A stretch of 64,000 nucleotides of DNA from Eledone cirrhosa (Eukaryota): NCBI GenBank assembly GCA_964016885.1, contig OZ024742.1, positions 142,538,001 through 142,602,000 on the forward strand, given 5' to 3'. A program made the position numbers and the translations under genes. This document shows positions 15,505-47,172 of the stretch, piece by piece. The notes under the pieces are model-generated. The model was not told where the DNA came from. It saw nothing but the letters and a program-made list of their open reading frames with translations, and did no database searches. Numbering within the stretch: the stretch's first letter is position 1; every line of letters begins with the position of its first letter.

Positions 15505-15691
15505 TCCCGGGTTGAGTCGGGGATAACCACAGTAAGTAAGGTACTCAATACATGGCAGAGTAAAACTTTTTTATTTTATAGAAGGAGCTTCTACAGGACT
15601 AGTACCGTTTCCTTCAGATGAAATCTTCAGGAAGCTCCTGAAGAATTCATCTGAATGAAACAGTACTAGTCCTGTAGAAGCTCCTTCTATA
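15505..15691. mobile_element. Mini fold-back element family A, hammerhead motifs on both strands (15587-15635 -, 15633-15681 +)
   Basis: Minus strand: GCUUC CUGAAGA..GAAAC..CUGUA GAAGC. Terminus tcccgggttgagtcggggataaccacagtaagtaaggtactcaatac is shared with 23878 and 46985; flanked by (TA)n. Confidence 0.8.
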
Positions 15692-15823
15692 TATATATAT
15701 ATATATATATATATATATATATATATATATATGTATGTAAAAGGTAAACAGAAATAACAACACAATCGGTACAGTATACAGAAAGGATATATTAGGTTAA
15801 CGCTTGATATAGCAGGAAGAGGG

Positions 15824-15859
15824 TCTTAACGTTTCGGATGCTAGTCCTTCATCAGAAGA
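15824..15859 (-). ncRNA. Minimal hammerhead ribozyme motif (family C)
   Basis: UCUU CUGAUGA AGGAC UAGC AUCC GAAAC GUU AAGA. A second copy at ~23110-23146(+) has GAAA changed to AAAA. Confidence 0.75.
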
Positions 15860-16078
15860 AAGAATGAGAAATAAGATAGATTGAGGGGACGGGCAGATTG
15901 GAATTGGAAAAAATGTCTTTAGATAAAAATAACAGGTCCATTCATGTTGACATCTCTTTTGTTGGATTTTCTAATTGGATTTCCACCCCAAAACTGGATA
16001 ACAACCCGGACGGAGTACACCTGAACTTCCACCAGGAAATTTTTTGTATCATTGAAATTTTCTTTGCTTCTTATATAT

Positions 16079-16551
16079 ATATTGTTATACTTTGGAAGGG
16101 TCATACTGCCAAGAAAAACACATGCACCTGTTGGTTTTCACTTCAATTAATTATAAATTTCCGGTTGGTTCGATCACCGGATGGTTGTTTATATATTGTC
16201 AAAGCTCTTTCGTCACACATTCTGTGACCTCCTCAGTGACTGGGTTTTTTTTGTCTCCCCCCTTTTTTCTGTCCTACACCATCTTGTTTTTGTGTTGCAT
16301 GCTTTACAAAAATAAGATGGAAATACAAAATAAAAACCCAGTCACTGAGGAGGTCACAGAAGGTGTGATGAAAGAGCTTTGACAATATATAAACAACCAT
16401 ATGATTATCGAACCAACCAACCAACCAGAAATTTATAATAAATTGAAGGGAAAACTAACAGGTGTCTGTGTTTTCATTGGCAGCATGACCCTCCCAAAGT
16501 ATAACAATATCTGTTTCAACACATGTTTTCAGATAAGAAATCTTGCAAAAC
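16079..16551. mobile_element. Penelope pLTR-derived fold-back with hammerhead motifs (16198-16240 -, 16341-16383 +)
   Basis: Inverted arms ~16079-16252 / 16330-16510. Motif GUCA CUGAGGA G GUCACA..UGUGAC GAAA GAGCUU UGAC. The 3' end atgaccctcccaaagtataacaatatctgtttc matches the end of the Penelope-like element (31892-31960). Confidence 0.75.
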
Positions 16552-17923
16552 AAATTCAAAAACAAAGTATATATATATAATTTAGATTAAAAGATATTAT
16601 TGATGCTCTGGACAAATGTCCATTTACTGGGAAACATAATCATCATACATTTTATATATGCTATGATACTTTAATATGATTCAAGGTTCAATTGATGATA
16701 GACCTAATCCATCACCTGGTTTAACACCACCTAGCCTTTGAATGTTTTTAGCAGAGTTTGAGTATACTCTCCTTCCTTCCACCAGTTTCAGATCCCTGAA
16801 ATAAGTCGTGACCCCAGCCCTTCTGCACATAACAAAATAGTAAATAAAAAAAAAACTTTAAGTGAATTAAATTTAAAAAAACAAATAACTAAAGCAAACA
16901 TTAATAAATATTGACAATTCCTAATGGATGGTTGATACCTCTTATTGTCTACTCTGGGGGAGAAAATGTCATGTTTGACACAACCTCTTTGAAAGTAATT
17001 CTAAAAAGGAGGTTAACAGAAGGAGATGTTGGGAGGAGGTAGGTCAACAATGGTTCCAATTCTCATGTCCTCTGTGTAGGTAAAAAAATAGGCTTATACA
17101 GCTATTTTATAATATACATATATATTCAATAGAATCAAAATCTTGACACCAAGAAATTGTATTGATAATGAGTATGGGATTTAGCTACCATTTCTAGCAG
17201 GTTGGGTGACTATTGAGAGACTTCCCAATTTACTCATATTAGCTTATGTTAAAACACAATGAAAATACATATTTTCAACGATACAATGTTAACTCTTTTA
17301 TTACAATATTTCTAATGAAAGACACTGCCTCTGATTTTCAAATAATTTTTTAAATGATAAAAAATTTCGAAGGATTTAGTTAAATATTTTCCCATTATTA
17401 AGGTAGTATTTGTATCATAACTTAAAAAAAGTGTTTTACATAAAATTATAATGGAAAGTTTTAATTAAAAAATGAACACAGTAAAACAAATAGTTTATCA
17501 TCATAGAACGAGGGGTGGTTTCAAGCAGGTTGGTATCAAAAGGATTACATTTCATTTCACAGCAATTGCAAATATGTTCACAGTTCAAATTTCATTGCTT
17601 TTGAAGAATTCCAGACTAATTCTTATTGAAATAGTAAAACTGTAGTAGAGACACTTAATAAGTAGCCAACTATGAGGGGATGCTGAAACGTCAGCTTAAC
17701 CACTTTAAACCGCCCCTGGTTCTATGATCAAGCTGTTTATCTTAAAGTTTATATATTTATCAAAAAACCTTCCACTATAATTTTATGTAAGATCTTTTGT
17801 TATGTTTAAAATATCAGATTAATGAGAAAGTTAATTGTATTACTTAATCTTTCCAAATTCTTGATTATTTGAAAATCATAGGCTGTGTTTTTCATCAGGA
17901 TTATGGTAAAAAAAAAGGTTTAA

Positions 17924-43790: not shown

Positions 43791-43974
43791 GTGTATATAT
43801 ATATATATAAGGAGTTTTTACATTTTCAGCACGATATAGTCCCCTTTGATTTCAGTTTTTCAACCAACAGAATTTCCTTTACTAAAAACGTTCCTATCAA
43901 CGGTGTTCTAAGAGATGGTGAAATGATCAGACCTCAAAGAATTTTTTTTCATTACATTTGTGTGTATATATATA

Positions 43975-44046
43975 TGTGTGTGTGTGTGTGTGTGTGTGTG
44001 TGTGTGTGTGTGTGTGTGTGTGTGTGTGTGTGTGTGTGTGTGTGTG
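43975..44046. repeat. (TG)n microsatellite
   Basis: Direct reading. Confidence 0.95.
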
Positions 44047-46270
44047 CCAACATCAAATCTCAATATTTATACACTATTGTGAAAAATATATTTTAAGCTG
44101 AGGAAGCCTCAATGCAATCATTGAACTCATGAAAAATAGCAAACAAATATCCCTCAAATCATACCCTGTAGTGAATAATGTCCAATAATCACCCTCCAAG
44201 ATGATAAACAAAACCTGTCAAAGAGCAGAGCAACTCGTGTGAGTCAATGGCCATCCATTAGCATATACATATCTGGGTTGCAGTCAGGTCAGGTTTTTCT
44301 GGTTTCCCTGGATTTTCTTGCTATTGGCTACCATGTAACCCAGTACTACCTGCCACATATGGCCAGATGGAGGACGTTAGCCTTGACTGATAGTCCATCT
44401 AGGAGAAGGAAAACTCTGAATCCAAACCTCTGCTGACTTGCAGTGATATCCAATCATGGGAAGGCCTCAGGAGTAAACCTTGTGGAAAAATCCAGAGTCA
44501 GAGCCCCTAAGGCAGTTCATCGTTGATTACAACTTTGTTCTGGCAGCTCCTGCTACAGCACTGCTGCCAAACTGTAGCAGCCTCGCTGTTCCTTTGGGTC
44601 CAGCAACGTTGTGGAGAGTGGAGGACATGCTACATGGGCAACATCCTGTCCTCCAAATCACATCGCCCAGGCTTGTATCCAGCCACTCCATTCTTAGAGT
44701 GAATAATGTAGCTTTAGACACAGTATGAATTTACAAAAGATAGGTTGGTCATGGCTGGAAGATTCCCTTGATATAGGTTTAGCCTAGGTTTAAATCCCAA
44801 CATCCTGCTGAACATATGCTTTTATCATAGTTACATATAAATTATCAGATAAATTAATACCAATGGCAATTATCTATACAAAGACACATAAAAATGAATG
44901 CACTATCAATTTTCACTTATCTCCATAGTGAATGTAGAACACTTAATTATTTTGAGTATTTTCTGAAGTTTATTATCTATTTAATAGTTTCAGTCATCAA
45001 AGTGTGGTCATGCTAGAGCACTTCTTTCAATGAACAAAGTGCTTAGTCTAGTACTTGGGTTTATTTATCTAGTAACTGAATTTAACTTCAGTTACACTCC
45101 TTGTAGGGGGTTATATCCCTTTGTGGATTAAATACCACCAAGAATTGACCCCAATTTACACATCTGTGCAGAAACAGACATACACACAACGATTTAGATG
45201 TGACTTGGTCTATTCATACCCCTCCCACTGTCACTCTTTATTAACTATTATTGTCATCACCACACCTTCACCCTATCCTATATTACTGTAGTGGATGTGA
45301 CCCCTAGTTTGGCTATACTCACCCCCCCCCCCGTCATCACTCTTTAGTAATTATTCTTATCATCATTTTATCCATCCACTATATCCTACACTACTTCCAT
45401 TCCTTTCTTCCTCCTATTACCCTGTTAAATCCCACCACACTTGTCATTCACCTATGACATCATTCTTGTCATCCTTCTTACACCACATCCTCCTTTTCTC
45501 ATACCTTGGAACAAGTCATCCTCTCTTCCCATTCCCTCTGTTAAATATATGGTAAAGAAGAATGCTCTACCCAACAACCAACCACCTCCCTAGTACTGGT
45601 GCCACAATAAAATGCACTCATTGGTTGTTGATAGGAAGAGTATCCAACTCTAGAAACCATGCCAAAACCAGAATGTATATGAGATATGGCTGCTGCCAGT
45701 CTGGTAGGACAGTAGCTCTGATTAAGCAGGCTTAGTCTGTGATGACCCATCCAACAATTGCTAACATACAAAAACAGATGTTCAATGATGATGAGGATGA
45801 TATACATACATACAGGTTTGTATTCTAAATATGTCAGGTGGAAAAAACTTCAATCAAGTGAGATAATCCTTGAAATTTCAATTGTGTTCTGATACAAAGA
45901 AGCAAAAAAACAGAACCCCTGAACTAATCCAAATTTTTTTAAACATTTTAAACAATATAGTGGAAGAAGGCTTTGTTTTTATGCCAACATGGTGACAGCA
46001 GCAAACATATTGTGATCTTATAAGACCTCAATATATAATGTGATATGCATGAACATATATATATTCATTATTAAGTCTAAGCTTCAATCTTGTTTCTTTT
46101 TTGTACTCACAGGTTTTTCAGTATGGTGTTATGTACTCATTCTTGCAACCATCATTACTAAGCAAATATATATATTATATATATACAATGATGATGATGA
46201 TATATATGTATATGTATATATATATATATATATATATATATATATATATATATATATATATATATATATA

Positions 46271-46980
46271 TGCGCAGACTGGAGAAGAACGAAGCATGCA
46301 TGCTCCGCTGGATGTGTAATAGTAATATACGAGAACAGCAAAGCATAAATGAACTAAGTGAGAAATTAGGTATAAGAGGGATCAGATGCTGTTTACTCGA
46401 GAGAAGATTAGTTGGTATGGTCACGTGTTGCGCATGAAAGACAACAGCTGTATAAAAAAGTGCAGGACGATCAAAATTGCCGGAAGTTACGGAGTAGGCA
46501 GACCCAGAAAAACCTGGAACGATTTGATAAATTCCGACCTTACACACTTGCACCTCTCTAAGACAATGTCACTGGACTGAGATCTTTGGCAGTACGCAGT
46601 AATACAGAAAACCCGCCTTGCGTAAGTACAAAGCGAAACCTACAGTCAGTAGGCACCTCTTAAACAAAAATACACCCCCATCCCACTACCCCCACCACCA
46701 CCCCACCCCATCAACACCACCCCTTTCTCTGTAAAGTTATGTTGGTACCACAACATCCAGTCCTAAATGAATGAGGTCGTGTAGGTGTCACGACAAAAAA
46801 AACACAGTCCACGCTGTAATATGGCCGTGTAGGTAACACGGTAAAAACCTCCCAGTCCACACTGTAAATGTGGTTGGTGTTAGGAAGGGCATCCAGCCAT
46901 AGAAAACCTGCCAGACAGTCCTATACGAGCGAGACGACCAATCTTGCCTCAGGTGGGATAATTCCCGTCTAAACCCATCT
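46271..46980 (+). mobile_element. RTE LINE 3' fragment
   Basis: WYGHVLRMKD, GRPRKTW and the family 3' UTR; truncated where the family A element starts. Confidence 0.88.
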
Positions 46981-46984
46981 AAAG

Positions 46985-47172
46985 TTATTCCGGGTTGAAT
47001 CGGGGATAACCACAGTAAGTAAGGTACTCAATACATAGCAGAGTATAAATGTTTTAATATAGGAAAGCTTCTACAGGACTAGAACTGTTTCATTCGTGAG
47101 AAAGCATCAGGAAGCTCCTGATGATTTCTCACGAATGAAACAGTTCTAGTCCTGTAGAAGCTCTTCTATATT
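46985..47172. mobile_element. Family A mini fold-back, hammerhead motifs at 47067-47115(-) and 47113-47161(+)
   Basis: Same terminus and same apex aggaagctcctga as 15505-15691. The minus-strand core reads CUGAUGC (mutated). Confidence 0.8.

Follow-up and report, generated by a model that had tools for sequence, protein, structure and literature searches.

Family A Copies in the Window

The window analysed here, a stretch of 64,000 nucleotides of the Eledone cirrhosa genome (assembly GCA_964016885.1, contig OZ024742.1, positions 142,538,001 to 142,602,000 of the forward strand), contains a hammerhead-bearing repeat, designated Family A, with copies in which two inverted arms meet head to head at an apex. 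Our analysis indicates that this apex probably marks the point where reverse transcriptase (RT) ran off the capped transcription start of a sense RNA, with +1 as the start. The four copies listed in the original prediction, an earlier reading of the sequence alone, were confirmed at 15497-15691, 23871-24522, 40331-40444, and 46982-47172 (Table 1). Position +1 is the first base of the stem I 5′ strand and position 0 the preceding base, which places the GUA cleavage position between +45 and +46.

In the 15.6- and 47.1-kb copies, a minus-strand long arm meets a plus-strand short arm of 55-60 nt, and both copies share the apex AGGAAGCTCCTGA, as had been noted before. The hairpin had been described as about 190 bp long; of this, no more than about 55-70 bp in each arm is paired, and the remaining ~75 nt form an unpaired tail on one arm. 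In the short arm at 15.6 kb, the stem I 5′ strand is missing at the junction, while the long arm at 47.1 kb has the hammerhead core CUGAUGC. The 24-kb copy has arms of ~235 bp with a ~98-nt spacer; its apex lies well upstream of stem I, and its short arm, without a tail, terminates in (TA)n. The stem I 3′ strand of the 40.3-kb copy is broken. As had been reported, stem I varies: it reads AGCUUC/GAAGCU in the 15.6- and 47.1-kb copies and AGAUUC/GAAUCU in the 24-kb copy. The GUA triplet was present in all arms, with stem III ACAG/CUGU in all except the 15.6-kb long arm (ACGG). Stem II had been thought to vary, but it is conserved (UUC/GAA), the 4-nt loop II being the most variable part. An assembly artefact was rejected as the source of the window copies, whose arms differ (94% identical), are asymmetric, and have fixed ends.

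Table 1. Family A arms and apexes in the window.
Feature	Position	Strand	Description
15.6-kb copy, long arm (subfamily A1)	15497-15636	-	Hammerhead motif 15586-15636 and ~75-nt tail; begins at +1, the first stem I base
15.6-kb copy, apex AGGAAGCTCCTGA	15629-15641	+	T15636 is +1 of the long arm
15.6-kb copy, short inverted arm	15636-15691	+	Spans +5 to about +60 and abuts (TA)n; GUA ends at 15676
24-kb copy, long arm (subfamily A5)	23871-24281	-	Tail and hammerhead (23959-24009); extends beyond +1
24-kb copy, long arm, promoter motifs	TATA box 24032-24039; CCAAT-like motif 24085-24093	-	Followed by upstream 3′-UTR sequence
24-kb copy, short inverted arm	24282-24522	+	CCAAT-like motif 24372, TATA box 24426, hammerhead 24456-24506
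40.3-kb copy	40331-40444	+	Single-armed and decayed; begins at about +3
47.1-kb copy, long arm (subfamily A2)	46982-47116	-	Hammerhead motif 47066-47116 and tail; begins at +1
47.1-kb copy, apex AGGAAGCTCCTGA	47109-47121	+	Same as the 15.6-kb apex; T47116 is +1
47.1-kb copy, short inverted arm	47116-47172	+	Followed by (TA)n

Assignment to a Hydra-Type Penelope-like Element

Judged by its sequence context, Family A is the promoter and 5′ untranslated region (UTR) repeat (pseudo-long terminal repeat, pLTR) of a Hydra-type Penelope-like element (PLE) encoding RT and a GIY-YIG endonuclease. The searched genome of 3.0 Gb holds more than 12,000 tail-bearing Family A arms, with 4,529 and 8,284 exact matches to two tail patterns. 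A walk upstream through a microsatellite-rich 3′ UTR led to an open reading frame (ORF) with RT, a CxCx5C linker, and GIY-YIG. One locus (L151) is a partial tandem of the autonomous type, consisting of a TATA box, hammerhead, tail, about 45 nt, ATG, ORF, 3′ UTR, and again a TATA box and hammerhead, so that the Family A repeat lies both 5′ of the ORF for RT and GIY-YIG and after its 3′ UTR, in a unit of about 3.8 kb. Family A copies are head-to-head or single fragments of this coding element's repeat, and the short ones correspond in sequence to pLTR pieces matching the putative 5′ UTR.

The features of an endonuclease-positive PLE were found in turn. ORF pieces from L151 and a further locus (L153) carry LYRDDG (RT) and LVYIC...YIG (C-terminal GIY-YIG) in a single ORF, which is frameshifted in the copies examined. 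The Family A protein itself gave no match in Pfam, while homologues at E ~1e-125 match GIY-YIG there, along with RVT_1 below the cut-off; no solved-structure match was found for the RT. Alongside the partial tandem, an adjacent inverted, 5′-truncated arm occurred in 100/170 sampled copies, and a tail was present on both arms in only one of the 100 copies with an inverted arm. Tandem short non-coding hammerhead monomers, the hallmark of non-LTR retrozymes, were absent from the same 170 copies.

Comparisons with published work, here and below, refer to the portions of each cited source that were covered. Family A resembles the Hydra clade (Craig et al. 2021, PMC8557442) in the C-terminal GIY-YIG, DKT in place of DKG (SDKTKN), the CxCx5C linker (CNCPDKTTC), and the CxxC and CxH motifs around the endonuclease E and N (CDLC..E...N...CMH, by eye), as well as in the pLTR hammerhead, (TA)n targets, inverted 5′-truncated copy, and one-sided tail. 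The CCHH motif is absent, with a single C between VY and YIG (by eye), and (TA)3 or longer followed within 40 nt of 158/170 long arms. Additionally, the RT aligns by eye with the printed part of Hydra-1_Obim (PMC8557442). The DKT, linker, endonuclease motifs, and (TA)n targeting match the published definition of the clade (PMC8557442) and support the placement, which relies on motifs and by-eye comparison with the supplement text. On the other hand, Family A has RWR where the clade has RWK, its unit of about 3.8 kb with the microsatellite-rich 3′ UTR compares with "generally <3 kb", its tail measures about 75 nt as opposed to 30-40 bp, and its hammerhead sequence is unlike that listed for Hydra-1_Obim (PMC8557442). 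Family A is a new family within a known clade.

Position of the Arm Ends

Arm ends were mapped in the first 100 of the 4,529 and the first 70 of the 8,284 tail matches, all on one contig (C1), the second set being subfamily A5. These copies were picked by their tails and hence blind to the apex, whereas the first 30 loci collected were biased by the query and were excluded from the end counts. An inverted arm was adjacent in 65/100 and 35/70 copies, respectively. The ends cluster at the first base of stem I: counting both arms in both samples, 105 of 270 5′ ends fell at -1 to +4 and 3 at -14 to -2 (74/165 against 1 in the 100 copies, 31/105 against 2 in the 70 A5 copies), +1 and +2 being the most frequent ends. 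Ends further downstream were sparse (0.8 and 0.4 per position at +11 to +60), and 12/100 and 23/70 copies (35/170) ran beyond -50. This pile-up is a hard upstream boundary. The peak is understated, since four A5 copies (L243, L252, L285, and L286) mapped at -16/-17 end by eye at +2 to +5 and were left uncorrected; two A5 copies about 0.9 Mb apart (L271 and L273) share junction and flank, representing a duplication, and both were counted. A TATA box lies 29-33 nt upstream of +1 in 130/162 arm records, overlapping loci being counted repeatedly. Subfamily A5, which is without the AGCT palindrome, peaks at the same position. At their other ends, the long (tailed) arms terminate near +135 and the second arms at about +60 to +73. 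Loss of palindrome centres after insertion was ruled out as the cause of the peak, as single-armed copies have the same one. At many junctions, there are short insertions for which element sequence close by served as template, and we take these to resemble polymerase-theta end joining.

The base next to the boundary was tallied by hand in 72 distinct (TA)n-joined junctions from the first 100 of 353 rows (contigs C1-C3) and, as an internal control at +24 to +30, in 62 distinct junctions from the first 100 of 191 rows (contigs C1-C5). Among the matches listed, position 0 was G in 36 junctions, C in 13, A in 14, and T in 9, while the element has C at this position and the target is without G; in the control, also among the matches listed, an untemplated G abutted the element in 1/62 and occurred anywhere in 3/62. 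The excess is significant (Fisher p = 3e-11, or 1e-7 without six snap-back junctions and one GA-repeat junction). Single-armed copies stop at the same position with the extra G. RT reads the m7G cap as C (PMC6885630), and in L1 a 5′ G without template has been taken as a cap trace (PMC9341517).

A second hammerhead repeat, family C, served as a control. It has a hammerhead palindrome at 26550-26875 in the window and 31,957 tail matches in the genome, and a conserved GGTATGT or GGTACGT resembling a 5′ splice site lies in its putative 5′ UTR. A TCACT-type motif is situated 80-90 nt upstream of the family C hammerhead core. Among 62 arms (2 of 64, without core, were dropped), 15 ended at -2 to +8 of this motif and 1 at -14 to -3, 24 continued further upstream, and 1 ended near stem I. 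The family C peak therefore tracks an initiator-like motif and not stem I, which argues that stem I does not set the apex.

Concordance Between Arms

The two arms of a copy agree in sequence. Discordance at common polymorphisms was 1/27, 0/33, and 1/19 against 14.5, 8.5, and 5.9 expected, and the comparison of arm identity within and between copies proposed in the original prediction gave 0.957 within copies (71 copies) and 0.80 between subfamily groups. The short arm passes -15 in 0/95 copies whose long arm stops short of it and in 12/13 whose long arm passes it; in 32 further copies, no inverted arm was seen in the sequence examined. Among 100 inverted copies, the arm reaching further 5′ was the tailed one in 25 and the tail-less one in 36, with equal reach in 39. 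That either arm may extend further favours two complementary DNAs (cDNAs) over the folding back of one.

The Hammerhead Motif

The Family A motif has the core CUGANGA, GAAA, and NUH and the three stems of a type I hammerhead, with a near-invariant core. Pairing held in 96.6% of cells in the stems across 48 distinct motifs taken together with their promoter context, and two-sided changes occurred in 2 of 13 pairs, namely +3/+49 (C-G in 29, A-U in 16) and +1/+51 (A-U in 43, G-C in 3). The covariation score exceeded that of 500/500 shuffles, while the number of covarying pairs, reached by 182/500 shuffles, was not exceptional. On the tree, the +3/+49 change forms one clade and the +1/+51 change one or two. 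The compensatory stem I changes of the original prediction are thus genuine, and the selection on the ribozyme fold that it had proposed is supported, yet modestly, by two stem I pairs and only about 2-3 tree events; as read from these alignments, the covariation signal is real but modest. Two motifs (L026:1501-1551 and L218:1507-1557) have one side of a stem I pair changed, giving a C-U mismatch and a G-U wobble, respectively; they adjoin the compensated clades on the tree and may be intermediates or recombinants.

Rfam returned no hammerhead match at E<=1, only sub-threshold microRNA-type matches on hairpins and tRNA-like matches, and for the monomeric motifs, folding did not surpass that of shuffles (z from -1.2 to +1.5). 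As a dimer, the minimum-energy fold of the 47.1- and 24-kb motifs is a double hammerhead formed via the loop III CUAG palindrome, with energies of -25.2 and -21.2 kcal/mol, respectively, against -7.6 kcal/mol; the mutated 15.6-kb arm did not form the double hammerhead. The G10.1-C11.1 pair closing stem II is lacking, with U at each of the two positions in 47/48 motifs. Folding models predict cleavage only as a dimer of two repeats. Family A shares with the minimal type I hammerheads of PLEs (Cervera and de la Pena 2014, PMC4209133) the type I topology, the palindromic loop III, the predicted dimer, the opposite-strand pairs, and covariation among families, and differs in having a 4-bp stem III with an 8-nt loop, a 3-bp stem II, and U-U where G10.1-C11.1 is usual (PMC4209133). 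Ends at the cleavage site were considered as a possible sign of cleavage in vivo: 50 rows among the matches listed end at +46, compared with 13 at +41 and 12 at +36; most of those at +46 are attributable to TA/TAGAAG or GAAGCT microhomology, leaving about 9 against 3 and 6 by hand count.

Proposed Mechanism and Alternatives

We propose that the element protein would nick both strands of (TA)n and that two cDNAs would be primed at two internal sites of one RNA, at about +135 and about +60/+72. On a transcript starting at +1, RT would run off after 60-135 nt and would often copy the cap G as C. A cDNA that reached +1 would end in ...CAGGAAGCT, and the added C would let its terminal TC pair with a nearby GA over a 3-nt loop, either by snapping back on itself or by annealing to the partner cDNA; extension would then yield AGGAAGCTCCTGA, and the ends would be joined by the snap-back or by microhomology. 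In the 15.6-kb copy, C15637 would be the copied cap G, its TC pairing with GA at 15631-15632 over the 3-nt loop; C47117 would be its equivalent in the 47.1-kb copy. The same pairing rule suits the apexes found in subfamilies that have G as +1 or carry AGATTC, although the other arm is a further possible source of the G there. Of 60 loci covered by the first 100 rows out of 6,790 strand matches, five (four of A1, one with a CTGATG core) had the window apex; the apex is a common recurrent class, and its presence in two window copies therefore reflects recurrence and not descent. Copies running beyond +1 would have the repeat further downstream as their source, on a read-through or circular RNA; this source, together with dimer cleavage as a switch, is speculative. 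The ribozyme does not set the apex.

Several points weigh against this proposal. The start at +1 is read from DNA alone, and the extra C could come from simple terminal addition wherever an RNA 5′ end is reached, although this would imply an RNA end at +1 all the same. The G tallies are hand counts on part of the listed junctions, and family C, with 62 arms only, is without a clear TATA box. Within the young subfamily A1, concordance is uninformative (0.979 within and 0.978 between copies), and concordance in general could stem from one active source locus or from later gene conversion between arms. Furthermore, twin priming and fold-back produce the same apex sequence, and intramolecular fold-back does occur, as shown by mini snap-backs, 4-5 nt long and adjoining (TA)n, in 6/72 junctions among the matches listed. 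These snap-backs accord with an alternative that keeps the run-off at the capped start and invokes a single cDNA, which would snap back at the cap-copied C, copy itself as far as about +60/+72, and join the second target end. Identical arms are what it predicts, and short-arm ends at +60 share TATA microhomology with the target. Even so, we find it the less convincing account, and rather unlikely: besides the 36 copies whose tail-less arm extends further 5′, eight have a tailed arm starting at +45 or later and another arm starting before +30, so that the tailed arm's cDNA cannot be the template unless a later deletion is assumed, and where A5 short arms recurrently end, at about +68, microhomology amounts to about 1 nt. 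Given run-off at the capped start, pure fold-back is somewhat less likely than twin priming, and probably both take place.

Other explanations dispense with the capped start. The peak coincides with the stem I 5′ strand, and the original prediction had suggested that stem I complementarity fixes the inversion point; either this pairing or the AGCT palindrome, by self-priming or ribozyme stalling, could set the apex regardless of where the RNA starts. Perfect AGCT-centred palindromes exist at 3/60 loci among the matches listed, and so does a genuine but rare stem I switch product (11/50 among the matches listed, four confirmed in loci). Its structure is a different one, though, joining to +46/+52 as priming at stem I predicts and unlike the observed apex. 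Since single-armed copies stop at the boundary with an untemplated G, A5 peaks there without AGCT, and the family C peak lies 80-90 nt from its hammerhead, we regard this explanation as improbable; the process once suggested, self-priming or template switching during reverse transcription, was right, and stem I pairing as the element that positions it was not. About as improbable is that +1/+2 represents a 3′ splice site (CAG) or other processed RNA end. CCCAG or GTCAG with upstream pyrimidines does span -2 to +2, and the Penelope intron of D. virilis stops where helix I begins (PMC4209133), yet copies retain the AG and share no exon upstream of it, the boundary is unchanged in subfamilies with GG at +1/+2, and the TATA spacing and extra G fit a capped start. 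Least probable is the other suggestion of the original prediction, that the hairpin moves as a unit, copied whole as a non-autonomous element resembling a retrozyme or a miniature inverted-repeat transposable element. An identical apex in two diverged window copies and thousands of similar hairpins (the 6,790 strand matches) would suit it, but there are dozens of distinct junctions, the arms of each copy come from one subfamily although A1 and A2 have the same apex, the short hairpins are without an internal promoter, and tandem monomers were not seen.

Other Elements in the Window

Besides Families A and C, the window holds another Penelope-like family at 27102-31917, with an open frame of 1046 aa (28246-31386) comprising an Asn-rich stretch, RT, and a GIY-YIG-like end. 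The frame is preceded by a head-to-head inverted copy of the element's 3′ part, whose arms are 100% identical (856 and 313 nt), and a longer open frame of the family, of at least 1209 aa, was found at another locus (L155). Motif scans found no canonical hammerhead in this family. Family B, with a hammerhead-like motif (CUGAUGA, GAAAC-GUU, and a palindromic minimal stem III), is present at 15445-15475, 15720-15880 (minus strand), and 23100-23245 (plus strand). Pieces of the family B tail lie, inverted relative to each other, on either side of the 15.6-kb Family A copy, which suggests that the two were nested in the same (TA)n. Long palindromes at 14090-14218, 16164-16417, 23450-23600, and 35419-35493 are probably inversion junctions of other retroelement families. 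At 17900-19150, a 50-bp unit is arrayed in about 25 copies and shows a relationship to a dispersed repeat resembling a short interspersed nuclear element (SINE), and tRNA-like Rfam matches at 12511-12569 and 34251-34308 are probably tRNA-derived SINE heads. Finally, broken RT frames lie at 1863-2444, 35546-36181, 54125-55592, and 59600-63700, which we take to be of the long interspersed nuclear element type (RTE-like and others).

Comparison with Other Systems and Implications

The element and its hammerhead, as well as the tail and inverted arm, belong to the known features of PLEs. In the passages covered, the description of the Hydra clade does not map apexes to the start site (PMC8557442), and we found no published report of PLE apexes at a start site or of a PLE cap trace, older papers lying outside our coverage. 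Retrozymes have been presented as PLE derivatives (bioRxiv 10.64898/2026.07.22.740005). A biochemical parallel to the proposed priming is PAc, which in vitro uses two internal RT start sites and extends both target strands (Frangieh et al. 2024, PMC11167929). As in PAc/Poseidon, two internal start sites would define the tail in Family A, the target is AT-rich, uncleaved RNA would be the template, and the hammerhead lies beside the ORF start, whereas the Family A ribozyme is placed entirely inside the putative 5′ UTR; the portion covered does not deal with 5′ junctions, inversions, or copying of the cap (PMC11167929).

As proposed here for Family A, two target-primed cDNAs from one RNA are joined by microhomology in L1 twin priming, and L1 inversions copy adjacent, non-overlapping RNA segments. 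By contrast, the arms of Family A duplicate the same 55-70 nt, with internal priming. A likeness to L1 lies in the extra G at full-length 5′ ends (PMC9341517).

Head-to-head Penelope palindromes have also been described in Adineta vaga (Arkhipova et al. 2013, PMC3846280), with inverted pLTRs carrying a TATA box and a TCACT-like initiator, junction palindromes, and a proposal of self-priming. There, self-priming was held to need an antisense template, and the origin of head-to-head inversions, from sense or antisense template, was left open (PMC3846280). The Family A junctions point instead to capped RNA of sense polarity, the cDNA itself serving as primer. Numbering in the thousands, they provide a countable in vivo signature, made up of an abrupt boundary 30 nt downstream of TATA, the untemplated G, and a single template for each copy, and this signature favours sense capped RNA as the template.

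As a broader proposal, which we put forward tentatively and hold as a serious possibility, head-to-head Penelope insertions may be the outcome of twin priming at two fixed internal sites on one sense capped RNA, the first 51 nt of which, in Family A, would be the ribozyme. Hairpins would then be the abortive outcome of capped linear RNA, and long copies would be licensed by dimer cleavage together with read-through or circularisation. Hairpin tips could accordingly constitute a fossil map of transcription starts, so that junction mapping would offer a reading of start sites, from DNA alone, for every PLE family.

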